DNA of 64,000 nucleotides, from assembly GCA_965205605.1 (NCBI GenBank), contig CBDBHE010000007.1, forward strand, positions 160,001 to 224,000. The letters are read 5' to 3'. Positions 29,364 through 50,623 of this stretch are shown one piece after another. Each line of letters begins with the position of its first letter. Position 1 is the stretch's first letter. The translations under genes were made by a program, and so were the position numbers. The DNA is from Spirochaetota bacterium. Lineage in GTDB: Bacteria > Spirochaetota > UBA12135 > COTS27 > CBDBHE01. Below the pieces are notes generated by a model. The model was not told where the DNA came from. It searched no databases and saw only the letters and a program-made list of their open reading frames with translations.

Positions 29364-32274
29364 ATATTATTTTTTTTATCTTGAATAAATTCATACCAAG
29401 CTTTATTTGAAAAATCAGCTTTTCCACTTTTTCTCATTTGTTTAATAAATAATAATCCTTTTAAAGCAATGTGATAAGCCCCATTATCATCTGTATTTTG
29501 TGGCAACCTTTCATCTGATTTTCTTGAATCAAAAAAAGATTTATTATCATCTTTAACTGGAGAAATTAAATAGTCTTCTTCTTCTCCTATCTTGCTATTT
29601 CTCATTTGTAGTGTATGACGGAGGGACTTGATTAAGTTTTCAAAAAAGTCTTTTTCTGTTTTTTTGCAAATTAAGTCTTTTAAACAAAGAGTCTTTTCAA
29701 AATCAAGATCATATTTTTGAAATAAATTTTTAAGATTTTTTGTTGGCGAAACCATTTTTGTATCCCACTGATTATTTTTCTCTGAATTTCTAAAGTTAAT
29801 TAGGCGATCTCCATAACTACAAACAACCCATTCTTTTTTTGACCCTTGGGCTTTTGTCGTAAAATCAGAATAGTCAATATGAAATTCGAAATAATCTTCT
29901 TTTTTATTAAAGCAAATCTTTTTAAATGCTTGAAAAAAGATTTGTGCTTTTTTAACGGTTTCGTATTTAGGGTATAAAAGATTTACAAATCCTGTTGTAG
30001 GACAGACTTTAGAAGTGTGATAAGCAGAAACGTAAAAAATAAACCCGCTTTGTTTTCCTAGTTTCTGAAAACTTTGAAAAGGAGCTGTCAGTTGTAAAGC
30101 GTTTAAATATCCCCCTATTTCTTGTGGTTTTTTATTTTTAAAAACTAAGAAATTAAGTTTATCAATTAACATTTTTTCTAATTTTTGATAAACTTGTTTT
30201 TCAATTTTAAAGCGTCCTCTTTTAAACCCAAAGTTTAAATCTTCAAAAACAATCATGGCGTTATGTTCAATCATTAAAGTAGTTAGTTTATGAACTACTT
30301 ACTTGAGACAAGTAACCTGCTTTTAAATCTTTAATTTTTTCAATAGTATCCCAATTTTTTCTAGCCTCAGAACGGTTTTTTTTCTTTTTCGTCTAAAAGT
30401 TTTTGATAATCTTTATTATTACCCAAAGGATTATTAAAGCTCCCTTTTAGATAACGACCTTCTTTGTCTTTTAAAATTTCTCCTTTTTGGTTGATAACAT
30501 TATAGTAGGCTAAATGACATTCTCCGCGATCAATTCCAATGAGGTTAATCTCTTTATTTTCTTTAATATAGTCTCGAACTTTTTGATTAAAATCAAATTT
30601 GTTTTTAGCTTTAAAATTACAAGAAATTGAAACATGGAATAAAAACGTATCAACAGCATACCTGCGATCTTTAATAATAGGGTGTTTTTGTTTCTTTTGA
30701 GATTCGTTTGAATGATGCCCTTTATCCCAAATATCTTTTTCATATTTTATAGAAGCTTTTCTGTAAAAAAGCTCCCCTTGACCATTGAGTTTATAAATCA
30801 CATTTTTTAAGTTTTCTTCCTTAAATAAAGCTTTCCAATAAAGGGTCTGCAAGTTAGGCCTCCCTGTAGACTTAGGAGAAAAATCTTTACTATAAATTTC
30901 AAAAAGATACAGTTCCCCTTCTCTCACACAATCATTAATATAGCTTTCTGGAATATCTCTAAAAATTACTTTATAACCAACATCACTAATTTCTTTGTAA
31001 AATTCATCAATACTATTATAAGTTTTAGATTTTAAATCAAAGCCAAATATTCTCCATTCAGAGTGTTTTTCTAGACTTTGTTTATAAAAATCAATCATTT
31101 TATTTAGATCTTCTTTATTAAAACCTTTTTGAGGGTCTCCGTTTTTTGTAAAACTTGAATGATTTCTGATACAGTGGATTTCTTTAGAAGGAGAATAAGT
31201 ATTCAAGTTTTTTTCACTAAAAAAAACTTTTGGTAACATCAAATAAGGGTCTGGTAAAAAATGATAGTCCATTTTTTGATAACATTTTTTTTCGTTAGGA
31301 AAATTTTTTTCAAAAAATAATCGATTATCGTTTTTATCCATAACCCCAAGATAATATTGGTTGTCTTTTATAAAAATAAGACTCGTATTGAGAGTTTCTT
31401 TACTTTTAGCCCAACCATTAGCAAGGCTTTCATTGTCAAAATTAAGTTTATATTTTTCGATACTATACGATTTTTTTGTTAAATAATTACGTGATTTATT
31501 ATAAAGAGGAATTATCAAACTAATGACCTCATAAAGGTCATCAAAATCACTATAAAACGCATTATCTTTTTCATAGACTTCAACACCTTTTTTTTCCTGA
31601 ATTTTAAAATGCAAGGGTTGTAAAAATTCTTGAAAACGTTTTAAAGCATCGAGATAATCCTTAATGAGTGGTTTTTCTTCTTTATCTAGTTTTAGGTTTT
31701 CTTCATCTAAGTGTTTTTTTAAAACATCTTTTGCCTTTTTATAAGTTGTTGTAATATCATCGAGGTATTTTTGAAGATATTTATTTTCTACATCCCATTT
31801 AAAATAATTAAAAAGAGATTTTTGATGAGCTTTTTTTGCTAATTCTTCTGATTTTTCTTCCTCAATAAAACGATGCTCCAAAGCTTCATGAATGACATAG
31901 AAAGACAAATAAGATTGCTTAAGATATTTTTTTCTCAGGAGCTAATTGCTGAGAATAAAGATTGATTTTTTCATTAATCCCTTGTTTTTTTTGACCTTCT
32001 TTTCCTTGTCTTTTTTAAGATCAGAATAAATTTCTGAAATTTCTTTTAAATCATTTTCTTCAAAATTAAAAGAATCAAGCGTTTGGGATATAAGTTCCTT
32101 ATGATAGCCATCAATTATCTTCTTAGCTTTTTTGTATTTTTTTGCAATATCTTCATCTTTAATTAAACAATTTTTCTCATTGATGTTCTTTAAAGTTTCT
32201 TTACAAGGCTTTAATCTAAAACGAATTGTTTTTGATACTGAATATTGATTGGTAAATCTTTCAAAACTTGACAT
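29360..32274 (-). pseudogene. cas12a: Cas12a (Cpf1), three fragments with internal REC-lobe deletions
   Basis: FTNQYSVSKTIRFRL, KLNF...GW...KE, MLPKVFFS, KLNGQGELFYR, IGIDRGE, IVFEDLN, DNGAYHIALKG. Confidence 0.93.
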
Positions 32275-34720: not shown

Positions 34721-35098
34721 CTAATTAAAAAAAGCGACTTTCACCAGCAAACTTAATATCAAAAACAAAACAGCGATAACCCATTTGTTAGAGGTCTTTA
34801 AAACGGTGATATCATTTTTCACTTCGCTTATCTCTTCTCTTAAAGCATTTTTCACTTCGCTTACCTCTTCTCTTAAAGCATTTTTCACTTCGCCTATCTC
34901 TTCTCTTAAAGCACTTTTCACTTCGCTTATCTCTTCTCTTAAAGCACTTTTCACTTCGCTTACCTCTTCTCTTAAGAACCCTATGTCTTCTTTAGTAACA
35001 AGACCACTTTTGCCATTAATCGCTTCTGCTAGCTTGATAGCTTTTTTATTACTAAAGCCTTGCTCTTCTAATATTTCTACAATTTCCAATGTATCCAT
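34721..35098 (-). CDS. Bdr/DUF1640-like coiled-coil repeat protein with C-terminal TM
   Basis: MDTL...GFS...A..LA...VTKEDI head, five 11-aa repeats, C-terminal TM. Confidence 0.75.
   Translation of the reverse strand: MDTLEIVEILEEQGFSNKKAIKLAEAINGKSGLVTKEDIGFLREEVSEVKSALREEISEVKSALREEIGEVKNALREEVSEVKNALREEISEVKNDITVLKTSNKWVIAVLFLILSLLVKVAFFN
34813..34975. repeat. 33-bp tandem repeat, ~5 copies
   Basis: Unit ~CATTTTTCACTTCGCTTATCTCTTCTCTTAAAG, encoding LREE(V/I)SEVK(S/N)A. Confidence 0.95.
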
Positions 35099-36094: not shown

Positions 36095-38140
36095 TTACAA
36101 CTTACCAACAGAAAACTCGACAATGATTTTGGTGTTAGTAACGTCTAATAAATGAATGGCAATTTTTTTGTAGTCAACGTTAGATCTCTCTTTTGGATGA
36201 GTGGGTGGAGAAGTCGACAATTTAATGGCATCCATCAAAGTAAAGCGAGCTTCACTAGGGGCGATTAACTTTAAGGTGAGGTGTTTGCCATTTTTCTCTA
36301 AAGTAATAGTTCGTTTTGATGCGTCAAATTGTACCTTTGTGCTACTTAAAATGTGAGCAAACCACCACACTTCTTTTGAAGGGGTTGTGTCCGAAAGCTT
36401 GATATTGTCAGTTAAAATAAGCTTTTTTCTTTGTGGCAAAGTAAAAGTTCGGTGAACTTTTACAGCATCTTTGTGAGCATAAGTAGGGGTTAAATCCAAG
36501 GCAGCAGTAGGGGAAGTCTCGGCTACAAACCCTTTTTGTGAATTTTGCTTTTTGGGAATATCTGCTTGCCATTTAATAAATTTAGCAACGCTTTTAACTT
36601 TTTGCTCACCTGCAAGAGAAGGGCCTATTATTAAAGTGTTGTTACCTTCTGCACGATTACGGTAATACTTCCAACGTGGGCTTTTTTCTCTTTTGCCACT
36701 CCAAAAAGAAGGCAAGCTATAATTTTCTTGTGGTAGCATGGTGATCCATCGCTCGCCTAAGGCATCCAGCACAAAACTACCCACATCCATCGTGCCGTGT
36801 GCCACTCTAGGGGTACCTCCTTTAAAAGCTACAAAAAATGCATTGGATGTCCAGTCACTTCTAAACGAAGCCACTTCTACGCGTGCATATTTTTTATCTC
36901 TACTTAAAAGAGAAGGGTTAAAATAAGATCCAGGCATCGAATATTCTTTAGGTAACCAAAATAAATGAAGTGCTTCGTGTCGATTGATTTCTATTCTGTT
37001 TTCTCCATAAGCTTCAATCAAGTCGCTCGAGTAGTGTGCTTTGTAAAAAAGGGTAGGATTTTTATACTTATCTGCCATCCACCACAAAATAGGATGGTTT
37101 TTATAAATAGGCCTACAATCAGAGTAGTTAAATATAAGGGAAGAGGGGCCCTCCATGTAAAGTGGGTACAACACCGAACGCTGAAACCCTTCAAAAGCAA
37201 AATCCAAGCCAAAATTGCTATTGAGTGCTGTCTGCAAGCTTGCTAACATTAAAATGTTGTAGCCCATACTATAATACCAATAAATAGGGCCTTCTTCACT
37301 AGCACCTTCGGGGTCAAACTTCTCCATGGCTTTACCGATGGTTAAAACACTATCTCGCACAGCAGAGTATGCCTCTTTTGTATAAGCTTCACTTACATCG
37401 CCAATGGCCAGTGCTGCCATCACCAGACCGCCATTACACACTGGGTTCCAATTGTTACTTCGACGATAAAATCCTCTTAATTTTTTTTTCTCAACATTAG
37501 AGTAGCGTTTCATCAGTGCTTTGTTAAATAAGGCAGCTTCTATTTGCTTTTTTTGTGCTTCACTCCATTTGCTATACAGCCAATCATAAGCAATCGCCAC
37601 AGCAGAGGCCATTTCGGCTGTAGAAAGAAATAATCTATCATACCAATGCGGATAAGCACACACAGCTTCTACTTCAAGAGCCAAACGATTAAAGTATTTT
37701 TCATCTTCGGTTAGTAAGTACAACACAGAAAGAGTGTTAAGTCGCCATGAAATGTAGCGTGTCTCTAAAAGAAAAAATTTTTCTGCTTTGTCAATCACAT
37801 AAGGAGTTGTCGGCATAATATACTTGTCCGCTTTGGTGCGTAATTTCACAAAGGTGTCTCTAAGTAAGCCTTTTTGCTTTATGTTTTCTCTAGCAGTTTT
37901 TAATTGATTCTCATCGATTAAAAGACGAGGATGCGATTTTTTTATTTGACGCAAAAAGGCAGAAGAAGTGGCTGGAAATTGCTTGTTTACTTTTTTCTTA
38001 ACCCACGATAGCTTTTTTTTTTTAGACCAATTAACTGAAGCCGTATCCTTAGTACAGCTCACCAATAAAAAAAATAGCATCAAAACAATGCCGACTACAT
38101 AACTTATTTGTTTACTGTGGTAAAAATATTTTTTTATCAT
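36095..38140 (-). CDS. heparinase II/III-family polysaccharide lyase, lipoprotein
   Basis: Lipobox LVSC; AIAYDWLY, NNWNPVCNGG, EGPIYWYY, FNYSD, HGTMDVGSFVLDALGERW. Confidence 0.85.
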   Translation of the reverse strand: MIKKYFYHSKQISYVVGIVLMLFFLLVSCTKDTASVNWSKKKKLSWVKKKVNKQFPATSSAFLRQIKKSHPRLLIDENQLKTARENIKQKGLLRDTFVKLRTKADKYIMPTTPYVIDKAEKFFLLETRYISWRLNTLSVLYLLTEDEKYFNRLALEVEAVCAYPHWYDRLFLSTAEMASAVAIAYDWLYSKWSEAQKKQIEAALFNKALMKRYSNVEKKKLRGFYRRSNNWNPVCNGGLVMAALAIGDVSEAYTKEAYSAVRDSVLTIGKAMEKFDPEGASEEGPIYWYYSMGYNILMLASLQTALNSNFGLDFAFEGFQRSVLYPLYMEGPSSLIFNYSDCRPIYKNHPILWWMADKYKNPTLFYKAHYSSDLIEAYGENRIEINRHEALHLFWLPKEYSMPGSYFNPSLLSRDKKYARVEVASFRSDWTSNAFFVAFKGGTPRVAHGTMDVGSFVLDALGERWITMLPQENYSLPSFWSGKREKSPRWKYYRNRAEGNNTLIIGPSLAGEQKVKSVAKFIKWQADIPKKQNSQKGFVAETSPTAALDLTPTYAHKDAVKVHRTFTLPQRKKLILTDNIKLSDTTPSKEVWWFAHILSSTKVQFDASKRTITLEKNGKHLTLKLIAPSEARFTLMDAIKLSTSPPTHPKERSNVDYKKIAIHLLDVTNTKIIVEFSVGKL

Positions 38141-38666
38141 GACACGACCTTTTTTTCCTTTAAATTCTTTGCTCCCATTAAAAGCTATCTAATAAAGCTA
38201 TCTAATCGGCTTGCCTCCCTGTTTGTTCAAACATAAGCATCGTTGGTCTTAGATTAGATGGCTTGCAGTTCCTCTAAAATGACGTTGATTTACTTACAAA
38301 TAAGTTCATTTTCGTCCCAATTCTAACAGTAGTATACACTTTTTTTATATTTTTTTCTTAAATTAATAAATTTTTTAGTTTGGTTTTTAAGGGAATAATT
38401 TCTAAATTATTATTATTTCGTTTTATTCTTTGTATTTCTACTATAATGAAGCAAGACAAAGCGGTTTGAAATAAACATAATTTAAATAAATCGACATAAT
38501 AGCTAGCGTGTATAAGAATTAGAAAATGATTTATTTTAATAAGCTAACGGATGTAATGTTTTTAAATCAAAGTAAAGGATATAGAGAAAAAAATTAGTAA
38601 CAATGATTCTCTCGATTGGCTGTAAGATTTTTTTTTAATTTAGCTTAAATCCAACGTCTAACCTTA

Positions 38667-41456
38667 ATGTCAGAGATTATCTCCAACCCTATTTCCTTTC
38701 AAATTATTATTTGGTTATTTACGTGTATTCTATTAGTATTTTTAATGCAAGGGGGTTTTCTTTTATTAGAAACAGGATTAGTTCGCTCTAAAAACAGTAT
38801 TAACGTTGCTACCAAGAATACGGTCGACTTCGTCATTGCGATGTTGATTTTTTGGATAGTTGGCTATGGTCTCTTTGTAGGCGAAAGCTTTTATGGTTTC
38901 TTTGGTACGAGCTACTTTTTATTTAGAGAAGTAGATAATTATAAAATGGTTTTACATTTTATTTATCAAAGCACTTTTTGTGCCACAGCAGTCACCATTG
39001 TTTCGGGAGCTTTGGCGGAAAGAATCTATTCTAATGCTTATATTAAAATAATATTTTTACTTACAATCTTTGCATATCCGGTGATGGCTCACTGGGTTTG
39101 GAATGAGGCAGGATGGCTTTATCTATTGGGATTTAAAGATTATGCAGGCTCGACTGTGGTGCATAGTGTTGGAGGTTGGGCATCTTTAATTTTCTTAATG
39201 CAGATAGGTTATAGAAAAGGCCGATTCGACAACCGACAATCAAAATTACAAGCGTCTAACATTCCTCTGGCATGTTTTGGCTGTTTTATCTTGTGGGTAG
39301 GATGGTTTGGTTTTAACGGTGGTGGTGCTAGTGATAATTTTAAAAACATTCCTTTGATTTTATTCAATACACATTTATCGGGAATTTTAGGGGGGGCAGG
39401 TGCATTAGCTATCTACATGTTACGCTATCGACATGTCGACCCTATTTCACTCATTATAGGAACTTTGTCAGGTTTAGTAGCCGTTACGGCTAGTTGTAAT
39501 TTAATGGACCCCTACAATGCGGCTATGATTAGTTTTATTTCTGGTGCTCTGTCTATGTTGGGAGTTTGGTTTTTTGAAAAATGTAAAATAGATGATCCTG
39601 TATCGGCAATAGCGGTTCACTTAATTGGAGGGGTTTGGGGAACTCTTGCCTTAGCCTTGTTTGGAGATACCGCTTTATTTCCAAATGATAATTCTCGCCT
39701 GTTACAACTAGGAATACAAGCCATAGGTGTTGGAGCGTGTGGCTTATTTACCATTATTATTTCCTACATTGGCTACAAAATATTTAATTTCTTTACCCCC
39801 ATGCGTGTAACAGAACAAGAAGAGGACACAGGTTTAAATATTACAGAACATAAAGTTTCTACAGAAATCTACGACTTTTATCGCGTGTTAAACCAACAAG
39901 CCGAAGAACAAGAAAATCATGTCGTCTATACAGAAATAGGAGCGCTCGCTAAAAATTATAAAAATAGACTAGAAAGAGATCTCAACGAAAAAACACAATC
40001 ACTACGTAATTTTTTACAATTAACCCAACAAGGATTTTTGTCCTTTGGCAACGATTTTAGTATCGACATTGGATACTCTGAAGAATGTAAAAAGATTTTT
40101 GAAATAGGAGAATTAGAAGGCATGCATTTTGGAAAACTTCTTTATTCCAACAATCAACTGAAAAAGAAAGACTGGATAAATAGCTTAAACTTATTTTTTC
40201 ATAGCAATAAAAAATCTAAAATTATTTTTAAATTACTAGACGATACGCTTCTTTGGGAAAAGGATACTCCCCAACAAAAAGAATTGCAACTTCAATACAA
40301 AGAAATCAGCGAAAAAAAAGTCTTATGTATCATCACTGATCTTACTGCTAAGAAAAAACTCGAAAAACAAGTACAATCTTCTACCGACTATCAAAAAAAA
40401 TTATTGAAAGTGGTTTGTAATAATCGATTTTTTGGTCAATTTTTTGACAACGCAAAAGATTTATTGCTTTTTTATAAAAAAAGTATCCAAGATGAGCAAT
40501 TTTTAGCCCAACCGAAAAACCTTTCTAACCTTTATTTACGCACTCACGATTTAAAAGCTAATATGGGATTTTTTGGTTTTGATAATAGCCTGCTTCAACT
40601 CCATGACATGGAAAGCATTGTACTTAATGTGATAGAAAAAAAAAGCCCTCTCAATAAACGCGTGTTTAATCAACAAGCAAAAAATATTGAAGCAACTTTC
40701 AACAAAGAAATGAATTTCTTTAAAAACTCTCTAGGCGAAGAGTGGTTTGAAAATTTTGACTCCTTAATCATTTCTACAGAAAATGTAAAAGCGTTACAAA
40801 AGCTAGTAAAAGATGCTTACCCTAAAGATAAAAAACTTTTTCAAAAAATATCTTTTCTCAAAATTAAACCTTTTATAAAACTGGTTAGTTCCCTGAAACA
40901 ACTAGCTCTGGACGTAGCCTATCAATTAGATAAAAAAATCAAACCTCTTTCTGTGAAAATCTCAAAGGATTTAGTCGTGTCAAATGAAATCGCTAAACCA
41001 TTGTTGCGTATTTTCCCTCATATTATTCGAAACATGGTAGATCACGGGATCGAAAAACCTGAAAATCGAATAGAATTGAGAAAAGAAATGCACGGACAGC
41101 TTACTTTTTCCGCCGAAGAACAAACTCTAGTAAACAACAATGAAAGCAGATCTTATTACTTATTTACCTTTTCAGATGATGGGAGAGGCATTGATTTAGA
41201 AAAAATCAAAGAACTTTCTATTAAACGTGGATTACTAAAAGAAAATAACAATCCACCTGATCCCAAAGTGCTAATCTCTCATATTTTTAATGAACGATTT
41301 TCTACCAAAGAAAAAGAAACCACCATCTCCGGTAGAGGAGTTGGACTCTCTAGCTTAAAAAAAGAAGTCTATAATCTACAAGGGAAAATTAGCATCAAAA
41401 CTAAACTTGGTCATGGGACTACTCTTTTTATTAAAATACCTCAACTCATTTTTTAG
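38667..41456 (+). CDS. ammonium transporter (Amt) fused to a PAS-like linker, Hpt and CheA-type HATPase
   Basis: Amt: LETGLVRSKN, IVSGALAER, DYAGSTVVH, GWFGFNGG, DDPVSAIAVH. Hpt: RTHDLKAN. Kinase: HIIRNMVDHGIE, DDGRGID, SGRGVGL. One 929-aa ORF. Confidence 0.93.
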   Translation: MSEIISNPISFQIIIWLFTCILLVFLMQGGFLLLETGLVRSKNSINVATKNTVDFVIAMLIFWIVGYGLFVGESFYGFFGTSYFLFREVDNYKMVLHFIYQSTFCATAVTIVSGALAERIYSNAYIKIIFLLTIFAYPVMAHWVWNEAGWLYLLGFKDYAGSTVVHSVGGWASLIFLMQIGYRKGRFDNRQSKLQASNIPLACFGCFILWVGWFGFNGGGASDNFKNIPLILFNTHLSGILGGAGALAIYMLRYRHVDPISLIIGTLSGLVAVTASCNLMDPYNAAMISFISGALSMLGVWFFEKCKIDDPVSAIAVHLIGGVWGTLALALFGDTALFPNDNSRLLQLGIQAIGVGACGLFTIIISYIGYKIFNFFTPMRVTEQEEDTGLNITEHKVSTEIYDFYRVLNQQAEEQENHVVYTEIGALAKNYKNRLERDLNEKTQSLRNFLQLTQQGFLSFGNDFSIDIGYSEECKKIFEIGELEGMHFGKLLYSNNQLKKKDWINSLNLFFHSNKKSKIIFKLLDDTLLWEKDTPQQKELQLQYKEISEKKVLCIITDLTAKKKLEKQVQSSTDYQKKLLKVVCNNRFFGQFFDNAKDLLLFYKKSIQDEQFLAQPKNLSNLYLRTHDLKANMGFFGFDNSLLQLHDMESIVLNVIEKKSPLNKRVFNQQAKNIEATFNKEMNFFKNSLGEEWFENFDSLIISTENVKALQKLVKDAYPKDKKLFQKISFLKIKPFIKLVSSLKQLALDVAYQLDKKIKPLSVKISKDLVVSNEIAKPLLRIFPHIIRNMVDHGIEKPENRIELRKEMHGQLTFSAEEQTLVNNNESRSYYLFTFSDDGRGIDLEKIKELSIKRGLLKENNNPPDPKVLISHIFNERFSTKEKETTISGRGVGLSSLKKEVYNLQGKISIKTKLGHGTTLFIKIPQLIF

Positions 41457-41465
41457 GAGAAAATA

Positions 41466-41951
41466 ATGATACAAGAAAACAACATCGATTACATTGCAAC
41501 ATTTATAAAAAGTAGTGCTTACATTTTTAAAGAAGAACTAAACATTCGAAAACTAAAGCGTAGAGATTTGTCTATTTCTCAAAAACCATATTTAAGCTTT
41601 CCTATTTTAGGCTTGATTGGGTTTTGGGGACAAAATTTAAAAGGACAAATTATTTATTCTGTGGCAATGCCTTTTGTGAAATGCATTACCGCCAAGATGC
41701 TACCGAATAAATTGCCCAATGATAGAAAAAAATTTGAGCATAGCTGTCTGGGAGAATTAATTAACATGATCTCAGGTCATGCAACGATTACTCTTGCCGG
41801 ACAAGATAGTATCATTCATATGACTCCCCCGGTGATTATCAATCAAGTGGAAAAATCCACAAAAATTGATTATTTAGATGCCAAAAACTTAGTGCTTTTA
41901 ATGGACTCATCGATTGGATCGATTGAAATAAATATTGGAATTAAAAACTAA
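41466..41951 (+). CDS. cheX: chemotaxis phosphatase CheX
   Basis: GLIGFWG.LKGQII, SCLGELINMISG (ExxN), MTPPVII. Confidence 0.88.
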   Translation: MIQENNIDYIATFIKSSAYIFKEELNIRKLKRRDLSISQKPYLSFPILGLIGFWGQNLKGQIIYSVAMPFVKCITAKMLPNKLPNDRKKFEHSCLGELINMISGHATITLAGQDSIIHMTPPVIINQVEKSTKIDYLDAKNLVLLMDSSIGSIEINIGIKN

Positions 41952-41953
41952 AG

Positions 41954-42310
41954 ATGAAAAAAATACTAGTTGTTGATGATTCGATGATGATGCGAGAACG
42001 CATTAAAGAGATTGTGACAAAATGTGGCGAGTTTACTATCACTGAAGCCGGTGACGGTGAGCAGGCAATTGCTCTTTATAAAGAAAATAAGCCCAATTTA
42101 GTGACCTTAGATATTTCCATGCCAGGAAAAAATGGCATAGAAGCTTTAACCGAAATCATGCAGATTGATACCAACGCTAATATAGTTATTATTAGTGCTG
42201 TAGCACAAAAGCAACTAATCATTCAGGCTATTTCTATTGGAGCAAAAGACTTTATTAACAAACCTTTTAACGAAGAAGAAGCGACAAACTTTATTAAAAG
42301 TCACCTATAA
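41954..42310 (+). CDS. cheY: single-domain response regulator, CheY-like
   Basis: ILVVDDS, LVTLDISMP, IISA, KPF; 118 aa with no output domain. Confidence 0.88.
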   Translation: MKKILVVDDSMMMRERIKEIVTKCGEFTITEAGDGEQAIALYKENKPNLVTLDISMPGKNGIEALTEIMQIDTNANIVIISAVAQKQLIIQAISIGAKDFINKPFNEEEATNFIKSHL

Positions 42311-42406
42311 AGAAAAGTACGATATCTTTTTTTTGAAAAAGTCAGGCAATATTTCCAGAAATAACCGTTTCTCAAATATCCCATTTCCGATTGTTTTCAT
42401 TTTTTA

Positions 42407-42748
42407 TTAAATGACTATTTTATTTAGAATAAAAACTAGTAAAGTTATTCCTATACTAAAACCAATACTCATTATTGCTAGTATCCATTTTCCAGACAAA
42501 TCTATTTTTGTTTCTATCCTTATTATGTCTTCTCTTAAAACACTTTCTACTTTATTTATCTCTTCTCTTAAATCGCTTTCTACTTTATTTATTTCTTCTT
42601 TTAAGAACCCTATCTCTTCTTTTAAGAACCCTATGTCTTCTTTTGTAGCAAGACCACTTTTGCCATTAATGGCTTCAGCAAGTTTGATGGCTTTTTTATT
42701 ACTAAAGCCTTGCTCTTCTAATATCTCTACGATTTCTAAGGTATCCAT
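42407..42748 (-). CDS. Bdr/DUF1640-like repeat protein, paralog of 34721-35098
   Basis: First 42 aa differ at one position; 7-aa and 11-aa repeats; different TM tail. Confidence 0.78.
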   Translation of the reverse strand: MDTLEIVEILEEQGFSNKKAIKLAEAINGKSGLATKEDIGFLKEEIGFLKEEINKVESDLREEINKVESVLREDIIRIETKIDLSGKWILAIMSIGFSIGITLLVFILNKIVI

Positions 42749-42760
42749 CTTTCTTCCTTT

Positions 42761-42804
42761 TTTTATCTATATAAAAGTATAGTATTTATATAGATAAAAG
42801 TAAA
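42761..42804 (-). promoter_or_regulatory. second copy of the operator/promoter
   Basis: TTTTATCTATATAAA-N9-TTTATATAGATAAAA; TTTACT-17-TATACT. Confidence 0.65.
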
Positions 42805-45281: not shown

Positions 45282-45698
45282 TTTTATAAGAATACTAAAT
45301 AAAAAAACTTAGAGGTGTGTTGTATACGCTTAGTTTTCCAAGAGAATTAGCTTCATCGTGATGAGGACAGACAAAAATTCTAATCTGTTTATCATTTACT
45401 TCTCTTTTAGGGATACCTTACCAGTGCCATTGTTTAAAAAATCCTTTACCGTGTAAAAGGCATTTTCTTTTAGTTGAAACATTTAATTTTCCCTTTTTAT
45501 TATTTTTATAAGGTGTTTATTTAACAAGCCTTTAAGTTCACGAGCGATTAATTGATAGGCCTTTTTGTCATTAAAAAACAAATTAATAGGTTTATTTTTA
45601 CGCTTTACATTGATTTCACCAATGAGAATTTCTTTTACATTTAATTTAATGTCTTGTGTTCCTGTACGATTATTGATTTGTTTTAACAAGTTTAGACA

Positions 45699-45802
45699 GT
45701 CATAGGCACTTAACAGAGTGCTTTATGATATAATAAAAAATACTTTCACTCAAACATGTTGTGATGGTCATAGGCACTTAACAGAATGCTTTATGATATA
45801 AT
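45699..45802 (+). CRISPR. type II-C mini-array: 2 repeats, 1 spacer
   Basis: GTCATAGGCACTTAACAGA(G/A)TGCTTTATGATATAAT at 45699-45734 and 45767-45802; 32-nt spacer at 45735-45766. Confidence 0.93.
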
Positions 45803-45803
45803 A

Positions 45804-45846
45804 GATCCTTTGAAAATTCCCTTAAATGGGTGTTTTCAAAGGAATC
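45804..45846. terminator. hairpin between the array and cas2 (leader or bidirectional terminator)
   Basis: GATCCTTTGAAAA...TTTTCAAAGGAATC inverted repeat. Confidence 0.5.
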
Positions 45847-45902
45847 GCTTCGAAAAAATTGTTTAAAAGTATTAATTAATAAAATAATTTCTCAAAAAAA
45901 AT

Positions 45903-46235
45903 TCAGAAAAAACACAGCTGCTTAGTTCCAAAAATCTCATTTTTACTAAAATCGCCTAAAAAAATTTTCATTTTTGAATACTGTTTATCGGTTATTTTTA
46001 ATGCTCGCACACTTCCCTTTCCTGGTAAAAATTTTTCTAAACGTTTCAAATGTTTTTCAGCCGATTCATTCCCTCGACATGGTCTTGCATAGATAGAAAA
46101 TTGTACCATGGTGTAACCATCTTTAATCAAATTTAAACGAAAACCACTTGCCCTTTTTCTTTCTAAATCCGTTCCCACAGGTAAATCAAACAAAACCATC
46201 ACCCACATAAATCGAATCTCCTCGTTAGCTGGCAT
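45903..46235 (-). CDS. cas2: Cas2 (type II)
   Basis: RFMWVMVLFDLP, DGYTMVQFSIYAR, ITDKQY. Confidence 0.95.
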   Translation of the reverse strand: MPANEEIRFMWVMVLFDLPVGTDLERKRASGFRLNLIKDGYTMVQFSIYARPCRGNESAEKHLKRLEKFLPGKGSVRALKITDKQYSKMKIFLGDFSKNEIFGTKQLCFF

Positions 46236-46238
46236 CGC

Positions 46239-47117
46239 TTAAAGCATCTTCACACAAATACAAGTCGTTTCATTTCGAATTGTTCTGTAAAAATATTCGG
46301 CAATTTTTTCGCACGCATTAATTAAAATTAAAGTTTCACCATTTAGATCACACGAAACTTGCAATACTTCCACAAGTTTTTGTCGATTTTTACGACTGAG
46401 TTCATTTTCATCTAACTGCGATTGCATCCCATAAACAAAACAATCCACAAAGGGTCTAAAAGGTTCGAAAAGATCGTCCACTAAATTAAAAGGATTAAGT
46501 TTGTTTTTGTGATGCACTCCAAGAGGTAAATAATATCCCGCTGCTGCCAAACTTCGTGCGAGTAGCGAACGAACAAGCGAGTAAACGTAGTTTAATGCTG
46601 CATTTTTTACGGTGTCTTCTGAGCGTATAAAATCTTTTCCAAAAAGAGCTTTCCAGTATCGTTTAGCTCCGATCGCTTCTAAATTTCCTTGGTCACCACT
46701 GGTTACTTTTTTGCTGAGCTTCAAAAGAAAATCTGCATCGCTGAGGTCAAGGAGTGATAAGACACAAGATTGATTGTAAAGTTTTGTTTTAACAATCTCT
46801 CGCCAAAGTTGTTTTTTTTGGGGAACGGTTAAGGCATTTTGCGCTTCGTAACTTTGAAGAGGACGAGAGTACCCTAAATAAGGAAGATAAAGCCCAGAAG
46901 GTAGATGATCTTTTGTACAAACCAGCAGCGGGACTTTGTTTTGGGCAAGCTCGCTCAATAAAGGCACTGTAAGACTAATCTGAGGATGATCGACTACCAC
47001 ACAGGCAAGGTCTTCGACTGCAAAAAAAAAACGGGTTTCTTTTTGAAAAATGCTTAGCTGTTTATTGTTTAGTCGCAAAGAAGAAGGGTTGGTTAAATGT
47101 AAAACACGCCATGCCAC
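46239..47117 (-). CDS. cas1: Cas1 (type II)
   Basis: MAWR start, SGD.GN.EA, NAALNY.Y, FNLVDDLFEPFRP. Confidence 0.95.
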   Translation of the reverse strand: MAWRVLHLTNPSSLRLNNKQLSIFQKETRFFFAVEDLACVVVDHPQISLTVPLLSELAQNKVPLLVCTKDHLPSGLYLPYLGYSRPLQSYEAQNALTVPQKKQLWREIVKTKLYNQSCVLSLLDLSDADFLLKLSKKVTSGDQGNLEAIGAKRYWKALFGKDFIRSEDTVKNAALNYVYSLVRSLLARSLAAAGYYLPLGVHHKNKLNPFNLVDDLFEPFRPFVDCFVYGMQSQLDENELSRKNRQKLVEVLQVSCDLNGETLILINACEKIAEYFYRTIRNETTCICVKML

Positions 47118-47137
47118 TTTTGACTTTTAATCCTAAG

Positions 47138-50100
47138 TTAAAGTTCTTGTCTACGGCTTAAAGGCTCTTGATGATGTTTTTTAATGGGATGCACTTCTCC
47201 CAAAGGATTAACCTCAAATTTTTTAAAAACTTTAAAATGTTGTATCCCAATACCCTCCATAATACCTTTATTGACTTTGGGTTCTTTTCTAATTTGATTA
47301 AGAGCGATCTCTTCAAAGATATTTTCTTTTTGATTGGCTTCATACGATTTATTCTCATCATAAGGCTTACGATGAAGATGATACCCATCATGTCCTTTAA
47401 CACTAATAGCATTAGTACTAATATTAAAATCATTGTAATACATTCGATATAAATAAAGCTGTTTTTTTCCTTGTTCTTTTGTATCACCCATACGAGTAAA
47501 CTCAATTAAATCACCTCGATACAAGCTAAAAAAAAATGTATACCCTGCATCATCTGTTAACTCGATTTTTCTTTTTATTTCTTTTCGTGGCAGCTTAAGC
47601 TTAGAGACATCACTCATGTAAAGAGGAGCTGCAAAGTATTCGTTTTTTGAACTTGTATAAACATCGATTCGAAGCATTGTAGCTGTGGCATAGCGACCCA
47701 GTATCTTTTCTTTTCCACTTTTTTGGAGGCGTTTATCCCGTACCTCAAAGCGTGGTTTTTTTTGTGGAAGAGGAATGCGTATCGCGTAAATAAGTGTTTG
47801 TTTTTTACCAATTTTCACAAAGAGTCTATTATCTTGGATTTCATTTTTATCAATCCCTGGAGCTTTATTTCCTGTTTCATCTTTTTTTTTGGATTTTTTT
47901 TTTATTTCACCAAAAGATTTTTGAAATGCTTTTTTATCCGTGAGATTTATCGGATCAAACCCTCTTTCTTCAAGTCGCTCGAAAATCGCCTTATAAATTA
48001 AATACTGAGGATGTGTTTGATTGTATTTTTTTGACTCTTTTGTAAAATTTTCCCAAAAAGGTTTTGTTAAGTTTTTTATGTCTACACGATGCCAAACAAT
48101 TTTATTTTTGTACGAGTAAAGGGTTTCTTCGTGTACCTGCCCTCTTCGTCGTCTTCTAACAAAACGAGAAACAAAAATTTTCCTAACCTGATTAACAAGA
48201 TCTTTAGCAAAGGCATCCCAAGGAAGTAAAAACTCTTTTTTCTGCTCAGGAGTCAGTTTATTTAACTCACTCGCTTGATAAAAACGAGTAATCTTCTGTA
48301 CCATCGAAGGATTAGTCAATGCGACAATTGTTGCATCAATGGCATGGTGTTTGTCGCTGCCTTCTCGATTTTTAGTGATGGTTTCTATCTCTTCTTTAGT
48401 CGCACTAAGGCCAGCTTTACCAGCATCAGCAGCTTTTTTGAGAGATCCAATCCATCGTTTTCTTAGAAATCCTGTTACCTGTCCATTTGTAGTAAAAACA
48501 CGTTGTTTTTTTTTACCATTAAGCAAAGGTTCTTCATTATAAAGACATTTAAGATAGTTCATTACAAATCGAGCAATGTAACGTGTATCATTGATATTAC
48601 GTTCAAGAAAGCCCTCATTATTGTAATTTTCTCTAAGAAGGCGTTTAACTTTTACTTCTTTTATTTTATTATTTTTTTGAAACCCAAGGATAAAATTGCT
48701 AAATTTTTCCCAACGTTCTTTATCTTGCCCAAAATATTCATAAGGAATTCTATTGCCTTTATTTTGGTTTTCAGAAGTATAAGAAAGCACTTTATTGTTT
48801 AAACTGTCATCTTGACTGCGACTTAAAGGCAAGATGTGATCAATTTGAAAATTCTCAATATTATTTACAAACTCTTGGCTTTCAATTCTCTTCATCGAAT
48901 AAATACAATGTTGATCTTGCTGTTCTTTCCAGAAACGATATTTTAAAAGCTCTTCTCCTCTAGGCTGTCGCTGAAAAAGACTTTTAAAATTTTTAACAGC
49001 GTCTGCTTGAATCTCTCGAAACTTTTTTTGTCCCTCTTCGATTTTTTTTCTCTCAATAGCTCCCTTGCCAATCTCTCGTCCAGTTTCAATTTTAATAAAA
49101 TCTGGTCTACCATGTTTTTTGATGATCGCATTAACAACTTTACGAACCTGTGTCACTGATCGAAACGCTACTGGATTCATTGAGATAGCTTCGGCTTTAG
49201 GATCATTTTGATCGACAACTGGTAAATTGCCTTTTTTATCCAATTCCCAATCTTTCAAAATACCACCAGAAGAATACCCTGCTTTACGACATGCCTTTGT
49301 ATACACTTCACCTGCTTCAAGATGTGGCAAAATCTTTTTCATTGCCTTAAAAGAAAGATTTAAAACCTTATCAAAATCAAGTAGATTGGTTAACTTAATT
49401 AAATCTTTATCTTTAATACCCCTTTTAGAAAGTTCTTTTTCTACACTTATAGGATTTTTATAATAAGTGGCAACCTCGGCAAGTGTGTCTAAAGTTTTAA
49501 TATCAGTTTTTAAAGATTCCCAAATGATAGAAGGAATTTCTTCAGTAATAACATCTTTTATTTGCCAATAAGCAGGCATTTTAGCAAAAATTTCTTTTTT
49601 TTCATTTTTTTTTTCTACCTCTTTAAAAAGTAAATTTTGATCTAATTTTAATAATTTTCGAACTTCTGAATACTTAATTTCTTTTTTTTCATTTAAAAGA
49701 CAATTTTTAATCTTTTTTTTATCTTCTTTTGAAAATGATTTTTCTTCTTCAGGCGAATAGGCACTAAAACGAACATTATTCAACCTTTGATACAACGTTA
49801 TCAGTTCGGCTGTTGGAGAACTTTTAGGAGCTCTTTTTTCTTTTGGCTCATGCACACAATATCCAACCATGTTATAAATATCTTTCATGGGTGTTTGATG
49901 AAAAAAAATATCATTTACGTATTCTTTTTCAAAGGCATCACTTAAGATTTCTTTATTGCCAAAATCTCTTTGTTTGCTAAAAATGACTTCCAGTTCTTCT
50001 TTTAGAAGCTTTCGAAAAGGTGTTCGAGTATAGTGTCCTTTTTTATTGCGTTTAGCAAAACGATACGCCTCATCCTTATCAAAAAGATCGCCGAGTGTTT

Positions 50101-50623
50101 GATAATTTTTAATTTCGATGGATGCCTCTATTTTTTCACCCGCTTTTTTTATCTCACCTATTTCTTCCTTTTTTTCTTTAGGCTCATGTTTGCGATTTGA
50201 TAAAAATCCACGATGCTTAACAAAATAATAAAAAAGGACTATCAATTCTTTTTTACTAAGTTTTTCACTTAATGCTTTTACTCGGAGTTTCCATGGGTTG
50301 TCTTTTTTTTCGTCGTAAGATTCACGAAGTTCATCAAATAAAAAAGACTCTTTATCATTTAGGAAGCCATGTTTGATTAAAAGTTTTTTTGTTTTTTCAA
50401 GGCGTTGTCTTCGTCTCTTAAGTCGTCTACGAGCAAGACGTTTTTCTCGACGATTTTTATTGAGTGATTCTTTAGTTTTAGAGTCTTCGAGAGCTGGAAA
50501 ATGACGAACTCCCATATCAATGATGCTTTTATTATCTTGCTCATTTTTACCTTGCTCATTTATAAGACTCCAGCCGATAGAAGTAATCCCTAAATCCAAT
50601 CCTAAAATTTTTTTCGAATTCAT
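47138..50623 (-). CDS. cas9: Cas9, type II-C, 1161 aa, catalytic motifs intact
   Basis: LGLDLGITSIGW, Arg-rich bridge helix, IETGRE, IDHILP...NNKV...N..K (HNH), HHAIDA; no csn2 or cas4. Confidence 0.97.
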   Translation of the reverse strand: MNSKKILGLDLGITSIGWSLINEQGKNEQDNKSIIDMGVRHFPALEDSKTKESLNKNRREKRLARRRLKRRRQRLEKTKKLLIKHGFLNDKESFLFDELRESYDEKKDNPWKLRVKALSEKLSKKELIVLFYYFVKHRGFLSNRKHEPKEKKEEIGEIKKAGEKIEASIEIKNYQTLGDLFDKDEAYRFAKRNKKGHYTRTPFRKLLKEELEVIFSKQRDFGNKEILSDAFEKEYVNDIFFHQTPMKDIYNMVGYCVHEPKEKRAPKSSPTAELITLYQRLNNVRFSAYSPEEEKSFSKEDKKKIKNCLLNEKKEIKYSEVRKLLKLDQNLLFKEVEKKNEKKEIFAKMPAYWQIKDVITEEIPSIIWESLKTDIKTLDTLAEVATYYKNPISVEKELSKRGIKDKDLIKLTNLLDFDKVLNLSFKAMKKILPHLEAGEVYTKACRKAGYSSGGILKDWELDKKGNLPVVDQNDPKAEAISMNPVAFRSVTQVRKVVNAIIKKHGRPDFIKIETGREIGKGAIERKKIEEGQKKFREIQADAVKNFKSLFQRQPRGEELLKYRFWKEQQDQHCIYSMKRIESQEFVNNIENFQIDHILPLSRSQDDSLNNKVLSYTSENQNKGNRIPYEYFGQDKERWEKFSNFILGFQKNNKIKEVKVKRLLRENYNNEGFLERNINDTRYIARFVMNYLKCLYNEEPLLNGKKKQRVFTTNGQVTGFLRKRWIGSLKKAADAGKAGLSATKEEIETITKNREGSDKHHAIDATIVALTNPSMVQKITRFYQASELNKLTPEQKKEFLLPWDAFAKDLVNQVRKIFVSRFVRRRRRGQVHEETLYSYKNKIVWHRVDIKNLTKPFWENFTKESKKYNQTHPQYLIYKAIFERLEERGFDPINLTDKKAFQKSFGEIKKKSKKKDETGNKAPGIDKNEIQDNRLFVKIGKKQTLIYAIRIPLPQKKPRFEVRDKRLQKSGKEKILGRYATATMLRIDVYTSSKNEYFAAPLYMSDVSKLKLPRKEIKRKIELTDDAGYTFFFSLYRGDLIEFTRMGDTKEQGKKQLYLYRMYYNDFNISTNAISVKGHDGYHLHRKPYDENKSYEANQKENIFEEIALNQIRKEPKVNKGIMEGIGIQHFKVFKKFEVNPLGEVHPIKKHHQEPLSRRQEL

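Follow-up and report, generated by a model that had tools for sequence, protein, structure and literature searches.

The stretch analysed here (the window) comprises 64,000 nucleotides, positions 160001-224000 of contig C7 (CBDBHE010000007.1) in the genome of a Spirochaetota bacterium (G000), which is a reduced, AT-rich draft of 1.69 Mb in 8 contigs, with the G+C content of approximately 30% and the completeness of 91%. On the forward strand, the window carries a gene in which an ammonium transporter (Amt) domain is fused to a histidine kinase core of the CheA class, followed at once by cheX and cheY. The features of this locus are listed below, residue numbers being those of the fusion protein.

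38667..41456, plus strand: Amt/CheA-class fusion gene, a single intact open reading frame (ORF) of 929 aa
38712..39857, plus strand: Amt domain, residues 16-397 (Pfam Ammonium_transp, E = 3.9e-104)
39831..40004, plus strand: Amt C-terminal region with short HAMP-like helices, residues ~389-446 (profile match to residues 394-449 of Sd-Amt1)
40005..40343, plus strand: PAS-fold domain, residues ~447-559 (AlphaFold2 (AF2) model m3ee473ae41af and Foldseek)
40422..40733, plus strand: four-helix bundle resembling the histidine phosphotransfer (Hpt) domain and CheA P1, residues ~586-689 (family profile against CheA P1 structures)
40755..40931, plus strand: P3-like helical segment, residues ~697-755, assigned with low confidence (profile and Foldseek matches to 4xiv)
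40932..41453, plus strand: CheA-class P4 ATP-binding domain, residues ~756-929 (PDB, profile and Foldseek matches)
41466..41951, plus strand: cheX, encoding a phosphatase of phosphorylated CheY (CheY-P) from the CheC/CheX family, 161 aa (Pfam CheX), after a 9-bp gap
41954..42310, plus strand: cheY, encoding a single-domain receiver, 118 aa (Pfam REC), after a 2-bp gap

The original prediction had described the same arrangement, a 929-aa ORF uniting Amt with a CheA-class ATPase and trailed by cheX and cheY at these two distances, and the ORF listing together with the Pfam and NCBIfam matches bears it out; the twin histidines H166/H318 and the histidine H627 (in the LRTHDLK context), which it had also named, are all present in the sequence. 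A stop or a misjoin between the Amt and kinase parts, given there as the observation that would speak against the fusion, was looked for, and the junctions turned out to be bridged. Contigs from public sequencing runs cover, without joints, both the Amt/linker junction (39730-40735) and the end of the kinase with cheX and the start of cheY (41277-42030). These contigs come from two runs of one sample, possibly the window's own source; contig cover is absent over 38400-39069, which carries no weight as evidence. A second assembly holds a 929-aa version of the protein, 96% identical and aligned without gaps, and the whole architecture is common to approximately 20 representative clusters (50% identity). 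The scan of 38100-42800 for promoters and terminators yielded 17 promoter-like segments against 18.7 in shuffled sequences, and 5 terminator-like ones against 2.7. Since these counts do not differ from the shuffles, the scan is uninformative with respect to the operon.

The residues lining the Amt pore, placed with the aid of the E. coli AmtB numbering, are all kept in the window protein (W145, F104/F216, H166/H318, D158) and conserved in 15-16 of the 16 family representatives. The closest solved structures are those of the two ammonium receptors: Sd-Amt1 of Shewanella denitrificans (8qj3/8qpf) matches the domain at E = 7.6e-91 and Ks-Amt5 (6eu6) at 1.6e-79, whereas the transport Amts score far lower (Af-Amt1, 2.5e-48; E. 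coli AmtB, 3.6e-37). In the account of Sd-Amt1, ammonium receptors are defined by an internal two-ion site for NH4+, N1/N2, which in that protein is formed by Q22, F25, E29, N45, D48, T104 and S107 (PMC11152129). In the ungapped alignment to 8qj3, all seven ligands are found in the window protein as Q28, F31, E35, N51, D54, T110 and S113, and they are conserved in 14-16 of the 16 representatives. The sole further Amt gene of the genome directly precedes glnK, and the stand-alone protein it encodes has His at the position of Q28 and Ile at that of D54. The study of Sd-Amt1 argues for a division of labour from the second gene of that organism, amt2 (PMC11152129); with a separate amtB-glnK pair available for assimilation, the same split between a receptor and a transporter would hold here. 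As far as can be read from the sequence, this is a receptor-type Amt domain, combining the pore fold, the N1/N2 ligands and a fused C-terminal transducer, which are among the features by which ammonium receptors (AmR) are recognized.

Between the receptor and the kinase, the family profile matches residues 394-449 of Sd-Amt1, that is, its HAMP segment (E = 1.2e-5); in the subfamily of the window protein this segment is 7 residues shorter than in the family consensus. In the AF2 model of residues 446-700, with the predicted local distance difference test (pLDDT) score of 80.5, a five-stranded alpha/beta domain is followed by a four-helix bundle. For the first of these, Foldseek retrieves the PAS domains of FixL, LOV and DosP (E from 1e-4 to 3e-3; template modelling (TM) score normalized to the target 0.66-0.69). 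The PAS-like linker of the original prediction is thus backed by both the model and the structural matches.

The four-helix bundle contains the candidate phospho-acceptor H627 (codon 40545-40547), K630 and E649, each of which is invariant in 16 of 16 representatives. When the single sequence (residues 399-929) is compared with the PDB by phmmer, the match to CheA P1 is weak (E = 0.04), with H627 opposite the CheA phospho-histidine. The family C-terminal profile (A3, built from 17 sequences) aligns the phospho-histidine in the same way and gives 4e-10 for 1i5n and 3.4e-8 for 1tqg. Pfam detects Hpt in 12 of the 16 representatives and misses it in the window protein; the Hpt domain proposed around H627 is supported by the family profile.

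Foldseek, applied to the AF2 model of residues 389-929 (overall pLDDT 68.6; 82-95 in P4), gives as the best matches the P3P4 construct of Thermotoga maritima CheA (4xiv) and P4, and for P4 the target TM score to 1i58 and related entries is 0.8-0.87. The phmmer search with residues 399-929 reaches 1.6e-24 for CheA P3/P4 and approximately 1e-22 for CheA P4; the family profile gives 1.1e-48 for 4xiv and 7e-48 for CheA P4. NCBIfam CheA models match residues 728-925 (E = 1.3e-31), and Pfam HATPase_c spans residues 785-926. The N, G1 and G2 boxes of the window protein read HIIRNMVDHGIE, DDGRG and GRGVG, respectively, and these motifs are invariant in all 16 representatives. The P3-like segment is assigned with less certainty: the profile alignment starts at residue 37 of the 4xiv construct, and Pfam H-kinase_dim is found in none of the 16.

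By Pfam, each of the 16 full-length representatives has both Amt and HATPase_c, 12 have Hpt, and none has CheW, H-kinase_dim or HAMP. The fusion ORF stops directly after P4, which agrees with the absence of the CheW-like P5 domain noted in the original prediction. Thus, the domain order is Amt, HAMP-like helices, PAS, P1, P3-like segment and P4, with no P2 and no P5. As P5 is lacking, the protein is of the CheA class only and not a CheA in the strict sense.

The protein encoded by the adjacent cheX matches Pfam CheX (PF13690) with 36.1 bits against the cut-off of 27 (E = 6.7e-9), and also NCBIfam CheX_Thtogales (3.1e-13, under the cut-off of that model). Proteins of the CheC/CheX type carry a catalytic Glu/Asn motif, S/D-x3-E-x2-N, and residues 93-100 of the window CheX read SCLGELIN. 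The window CheY matches REC at E = 4.1e-28 and has D8, D9, D53, S81 and K103; Y106 of E. coli CheY corresponds to F100 in it. Among solved CheY structures it is closest to that of T. maritima (1tmy; 1.5e-31, 112 bits), followed by 'CheY-3' (3hzh; 6.8e-21, 78 bits).

Full-length fusions were found by the profile search in 18 of 401 Spirochaetota genomes (the window genome included), and in 2 further genomes of this phylum a contig ends within the fusion. At least 11 family codes are represented among the matches, and only one of the eight genomes from the same order is positive. The genomes grouped in this phylum include ones with 87% DNA identity to a named Leptospira record, and a named Treponema MAG carries the fusion, which identifies the phylum as Spirochaetota. 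No fusion was found among 1,003 genomes from three further phyla (401, 301 and 301 genomes; E <= 1e-230), the phyla being those of Vreelandella (G402), a Myxococcota metagenome-assembled genome (MAG; G401) and a Desulfocurvus MAG (G403); these samples are sparse, and 2-3 candidates were scored per genome, hence this means not found in the genomes searched rather than absent. The contig scan with the Amt-containing alignment A1 returned 80 loci, of which 79 are ordinary or differently fused Amts, as expected from scan patterns that came from the Amt domain, and the only full fusion is that of a Treponema MAG (L060 in G405). When metagenomes were scanned with A4, the alignment of the subfamily linker, there were 113 pattern matches, with 0 confirmed.

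Within this family, the window protein belongs to a divergent subfamily. It is 30-32% identical to the sampled spirochaete members and 37-40% identical to P0003-P0005; the representatives P0011, P0013, P0015, P0020, P0028 and P0135 show 33-40% identity to any sampled spirochaete member. In the corresponding ESM Atlas cluster (945 aa, 66 members, mostly Spirochaetota), PF00909 is present in 100% of the members; 95% have Hpt and 94% have HATPase_c. In the sibling clusters the Hpt and HATPase_c core is fused to PAS, CBS, 7TMR-DISM, cNMP-binding, MASE6 or HAMP inputs, and the CheA-class core without P5 seems to serve other sensors, too. In the Treponema MAG, the linker-to-kinase profile also recognizes two open frames of 849 aa (G405:C32:21220-22629; 1e-117) and 727 aa (G405:C23:7072-8469; 1e-115), neither of which has an Amt domain.

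The linkage to cheX and cheY, which the original prediction had proposed to check, is retained in the relatives, although the order of the genes differs from that in the window. In 17 of 17 full-length relatives, as well as at L113 and L060, cheY lies just upstream of the fusion gene on the same strand. The ORF of approximately 148 aa between cheY and the kinase gene is Pfam CheX in all 10 cases tested, and it is CheX-like by BLAST in two more genomes. The order in these relatives, including the sole same-order genome with the module, is cheY-cheX-kinase, versus kinase-cheX-cheY in the window. The Amt-kinase, CheX and CheY form a conserved module.

Directly 3' of the fusion gene, the nine genes tested in the relatives encode a PAS-class III cyclase (4 of 9), a CBS-SpoIIE (PP2C) phosphatase (4 of 9) or an unrelated protein (1 of 9). 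The cyclase and phosphatase genes are those at L096, L100, L060 and L107, and at L097, L098, L099 and L102, respectively, and the stop and start codons often overlap. The cyclase and the phosphatase may be further members of the module. These spirochaetes have many CheY paralogues, and in 4 relatives there are also canonical cheX-then-cheY pairs with the same X-Y order as in the window.

The phylogenetic trees do not simply place the window genes with the module. In the CheX tree, the module CheXs of the relatives form a separate clade (support 100/98), while the window CheX and the other CheX of the genome group with the CheXs of the canonical cheX-cheY pairs (99/95). The placement of both is unsafe, since their branches are very long, and the approximately unbiased (AU) test does not reject the union of the window CheX with the module clade (p = 0.13). 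In the CheY tree, the module CheYs of the relatives form one clade (93/89) apart from the canonical-pair CheYs; for the window CheY, neither the module clade (p = 0.48) nor the clade of the canonical pairs (p = 0.62) is rejected.

The genome also has an MCP-type chemosensory cluster, the only one and of unusual composition. This cluster on contig C4 contains genes for a cyclase, a CheY, a stand-alone Hpt protein, a CheA lacking P1, CheW, CheB, CheR, a methyl-accepting chemotaxis protein (MCP) and a tetratricopeptide repeat (TPR) protein, all in a single copy. In this cluster (L001, G000:C4:24000-37000), the class III cyclase and CheY genes come first; the separate Hpt protein has 170 aa, CheA has 648 aa, no P1 and two CheW-like matches, and CheB has no receiver domain. 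None of the matches to MCP, CheW, CheR, CheB and P-II in the 1.69-Mb genome falls within the window: their places are contig C4 and C7:442710, which confirms that MCP, cheW, cheR/B and glnK are missing from the window, as predicted. The genome encodes three single-domain receivers and two CheX proteins. For the CheY of the C4 cluster, the score against T. maritima CheY is 66 bits; it is best matched by 4hnr/4h60, probably a non-motor CheY of Vibrio. The catalytic domain of the C4-cluster cyclase is 42% identical to that of the module-linked cyclase of the relative L096 (E = 2e-57). The second cheX (L126:4201-4680, minus strand; G000:C7:670200-670682) stands alone between greA and the 3-dehydroquinate synthase gene; its product is nearer to the canonical CheX of the relatives than the window CheX is (70-74 vs 46-47 bits), yet there is no cheY beside it. 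FliM of this genome starts with MTEILSQDEIDKLL and has the N-terminal peptide LSQDEIDKLL. The modelled complex of the window CheY with FliM residues 1-45 scored 0.06 against the mark of 0.34 and gives no evidence either way.

Considering these data together, we regard it as rather probable that the 929-aa protein is a membrane ammonium receptor-kinase operating an MCP- and CheW-independent relay to CheY, with CheX providing the reset and the flagellar motor as the favoured output. Occupancy of N1/N2 by NH4+ would be relayed through the C-terminal region of Amt, the short HAMP-like helices and the PAS fold to the CheA-class core consisting of P1/Hpt with H627, the P3-like helices and the P4 ATPase. 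As this core has neither the CheY-docking P2 nor P5, which couples CheA to CheW and receptors, the input is expected to come from the fused Amt module and not from an MCP/CheW array. P4 would phosphorylate H627, the phosphoryl group would pass to D53 of the adjacent CheY, and the adjacent CheX would hydrolyse CheY-P, allowing for a fast reset. In the favoured variant CheY-P may act on the flagellar switch, so that ambient ammonium would bias swimming (taxis or kinesis), and the same CheY may also take input from the canonical MCP-coupled CheA of this reduced genome.

Motor output, that is, ammonium taxis, is plausible. It is hinted at by the similarity of the window CheY to T. maritima CheY, the presence of only three single-domain receivers, FliM with its N-terminal peptide, and the canonical type of the window CheX. 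That the Amt-CheA kinase directly phosphorylates the only motor-type CheY of the cell, so that the receptor is wired to the flagellar switch without MCPs, CheW arrays and methylation-based adaptation, is a more specific claim, and one we put forward only tentatively. If true, such wiring would be a minimal transporter-derived pathway of chemotaxis or kinesis, and P5-less CheA-class kinases with fused sensors would constitute a second, array-free way of controlling CheY in Spirochaetota. The self-contained three-gene circuit of the original prediction stands only in part: the three genes are a conserved unit, but the genome has in addition the MCP-CheA-CheW-CheB-CheR cluster and a second CheX.

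Several observations weigh against this reading. Every signalling step in it is deduced from homology and synteny. In the receptor, Ile takes the place of N269, the residue by which the cytoplasmic exit of Sd-Amt1 is narrowed (Asn in 12 of 16 representatives), and Gly takes that of the Ser in the outer vestibule (Ser in 14 of 16); the domain may still transport. In the transducer, Pfam finds no Hpt in the window protein itself, and AF2 predicts poorly both the HAMP-like helices (pLDDT < 50) and the P3-like segment (35-52). On the output side, the window CheY falls outside the module-CheY clade; as the genome is 91% complete, another CheY may be missing from it; and the cyclase or PP2C gene downstream of the fusion in 8 of the 9 relatives tested hints at an output other than the motor. 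Finally, the sole CheR and CheB are encoded in the MCP cluster, and none acts on the Amt receptor, hence classical temporal gradient sensing is not obviously available. The absence of methylation-type adaptation would favour kinesis or a band-pass response over classical adapting chemotaxis.

There are several alternatives to be weighed against the receptor-kinase relay. The cheX-cheY pair could be the general chemotaxis pair of the cell, served mainly by the MCP-coupled CheA of the C4 cluster and brought to its present place by a lineage-specific rearrangement, with the fusion protein either adding an input or having no dedicated partner. The order of genes in the window, different from that in all the relatives examined, the X-then-Y arrangement shared with the canonical pairs of 4 relatives, the grouping of the window CheX with the canonical type, and the lack of any other motor-like CheY found in the genome speak for this explanation. 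Vice versa, the gaps of 9 and 2 bp point to one transcription unit, the AU tests reject module ancestry for neither CheY nor CheX, the very long branches make the placement of both CheX proteins of the genome unsafe, and it is the second CheX that is nearer to the canonical type. We consider this alternative possible, if doubtful. The gene order and the tree groupings do suggest that the kinase of the window unit may have been paired anew, in this lineage, with cheX and cheY of the canonical type.

The same kinase, CheY and CheX could also serve a non-motor output, with CheY-P acting through direct protein contact on an effector such as a class III cyclase producing cyclic AMP (cAMP) or a PP2C partner-switching phosphatase, in which case ammonium would tune physiology or gene expression. 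In its favour, a PAS-cyclase or CBS-SpoIIE phosphatase gene follows the fusion in most of the relatives tested, and a homologue of the L096 module-linked cyclase adjoins the CheY of the C4 cluster; the module CheYs of the relatives form a clade of their own, in genomes rich in CheY paralogues. In the window, however, there is no cyclase or PP2C gene beside the module, the CheY is most similar to motor-type CheYs, the CheX is of the canonical-pair type, and the presence of a dedicated CheX would suggest a fast, motor-like time scale. On balance, a non-motor output in this organism seems rather unlikely.

The remaining alternative concerns the input. The Amt domain could be a working transporter (a transceptor), with the kinase reporting the flux or an intracellular cue sensed by PAS, and not external NH4+ bound at N1/N2. 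All pore residues are intact, the exit-narrowing Asn is replaced by Ile, the PAS fold sits between the receptor and the kinase, and some proteins with the N1/N2 motif do transport (PMC11152129). At the same time, uptake is already served by amtB-glnK, the domain is much nearer to the two non-transporting receptors than to the transport Amts, N1/N2 is kept across the family, and no cofactor-binding PAS family is recognized by Pfam (0.0049 in 1 of 16 representatives). Thus, we consider a transceptor unlikely. The idea that the fusion arose by an error of assembly or annotation, or is a pseudogene in decay, which the draft state of the reduced, AT-rich genome in 8 contigs and the degraded Cas12a gene in the same window might bring to mind, is rejected as extremely improbable, given the 929 codons in one open frame, the same-length, ungapped, 96%-identical copy in another assembly, both junctions spanned by public-run contigs, approximately 20 representative clusters (50% identity) of the same architecture, and the intact state of every catalytic motif.

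The receptor-kinase relay would extend what is known about Amt-fold ammonium receptors. Two of them have been characterized so far, one with a classical histidine kinase that has no known partner, the other with a diguanylate cyclase; the CheA-class kinase would be a third type of transducer. As the likely response regulator and the phosphatase are encoded next door, which is not the case for Ks-Amt5, the whole pathway is testable in vitro. The CheA-type core has here shed the array-coupling P5 and acquired a membrane sensor, which casts doubt on the rule that an input domain is absent from CheA, and a trimeric receptor driving a dimeric kinase is a structural puzzle. Should CheY reach the motor, spirochaetes would have an MCP-independent route to ammonium-guided motility.

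Other features of the window lie on both sides of this locus. Upstream, at 36095-38140 (minus strand), a heparinase II/III-like protein with a lipoprotein-type N terminus is encoded divergently from the fusion gene, the spacer being 526 bp; its gene is in the G+C-richest 2-kb block of the window (0.38 vs ~0.30). Two genes for small coiled-coil proteins with weak CCDC90-like matches (PF07798) are located at 34721-35098 and 42407-42748 (both minus strand). One CCDC90-like gene is directly 3' of cheY on the opposite strand and has an internal tandem duplication of a KEEIGFLKEEI-type peptide. Cas12a (Cpf1) fragments occupy at least two ORFs at 30367-32274 (minus strand), one of 512 aa (REC2, PI and the start of RuvC) and one of 109 aa (REC1), and seem to be the remains of a type V effector. 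The CRISPR-Cas locus at 45685-50623 is of type II and encodes Cas9 of 1160 aa (47138-50623, minus strand) and Cas1 (46239-47117, minus strand), while the 110-aa ORF at 45903-46235 may be a candidate Cas2. Two direct repeats of approximately 51 nt, spaced by 68 nt (45685-45803), possibly represent a minimal CRISPR array.

The literature search turned up no account of a protein combining Amt with a CheA-type kinase, or of the linkage of such a protein to CheX and CheY, with the reservation that Fig. 7B and the supplement of PMC11152129, which list the domains of fused Amts, may include the architecture. The main texts of PMC11152129 and PMC5764959 contain none of the words 'CheA', 'chemotaxis' and 'Hpt'. 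In the accessible text of the other papers, 'chemotaxis' is absent from PMC10433425, 'CheA' and 'chemotaxis' from PMC12918730, and 'ammonium', 'Amt' and 'transmembrane' from the CheA survey PMC10782961. The statement of the original prediction that no example is characterized therefore holds for published descriptions, whereas the architecture as such is already present in public databases as an unnamed family; thus, P0009 is labelled 'ammonium transporter' or 'histidine kinase' (Rarispira pelagica record). The fusion is real and conserved, an uncharacterized variant within the class of ammonium receptors, its transducer being of the chemotaxis type.

Sd-Amt1 (8qj3/8qj4/8qpf; PMC11152129) shares with the window protein the identical set of N1/N2 ligands and the C-terminal transducer attached via a HAMP-like segment, and its host likewise has an extra ordinary Amt. 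The transducer of Sd-Amt1 is, however, a GGDEF cyclase producing cyclic di-GMP (c-di-GMP), whereas the window protein has the PAS fold and the CheA-class P1-P3-P4 core, with a predicted phosphorelay to CheY and CheX; the two also differ by the replacements N269 to Ile and the outer Ser to Gly. Ks-Amt5 of 'Ca. Kuenenia stuttgartiensis' (6eu6; PMC5764959) is similar in combining an Amt receptor that has the N1/N2 site with a histidine kinase, and in placing a trimeric sensor on a normally dimeric kinase. According to the same account, its kinase is of the classical HisKA type (a dimerization and histidine phosphotransfer domain, DHp, plus a catalytic domain, CA) and joined to the Amt part directly, without HAMP. 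No response regulator has been identified for Ks-Amt5. In contrast, the phospho-histidine of the window protein is on a separate Hpt/P1 bundle, the HAMP-like helices and PAS are inserted before it, and CheY and CheX are encoded alongside.

With CheA of T. maritima and E. coli (4xiv, 1i58, 1i5n, 6s1k) the window protein has in common P1, a part of P3, the N, G1 and G2 boxes of P4, and the CheY-family receiver and CheX as partners; it differs by lacking P2 and P5 and by having its own membrane sensor. With no P5/CheW domain, it cannot join MCP/CheW arrays in the known way. In the available part of the CheA survey, the four core domains are said to co-occur invariably and CheA to lack a sensor domain, and the window protein is outside this definition (PMC10782961). 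The resemblance to the T. maritima CheX/CheY system consists in the use of CheX and not CheZ as the phosphatase, and in the CheY being closest to T. maritima CheY and to 3hzh. Signal termination by the CheX-CheY3 pair is also known in Borrelia. The cheX-cheY pair here trails the Amt-kinase gene and not cheA-cheW, and FliM is only a candidate target of the window CheY. By analogy, then, the input side of the system would work like Ks-Amt5 and Sd-Amt1, and the output side like CheA, CheY and CheX.

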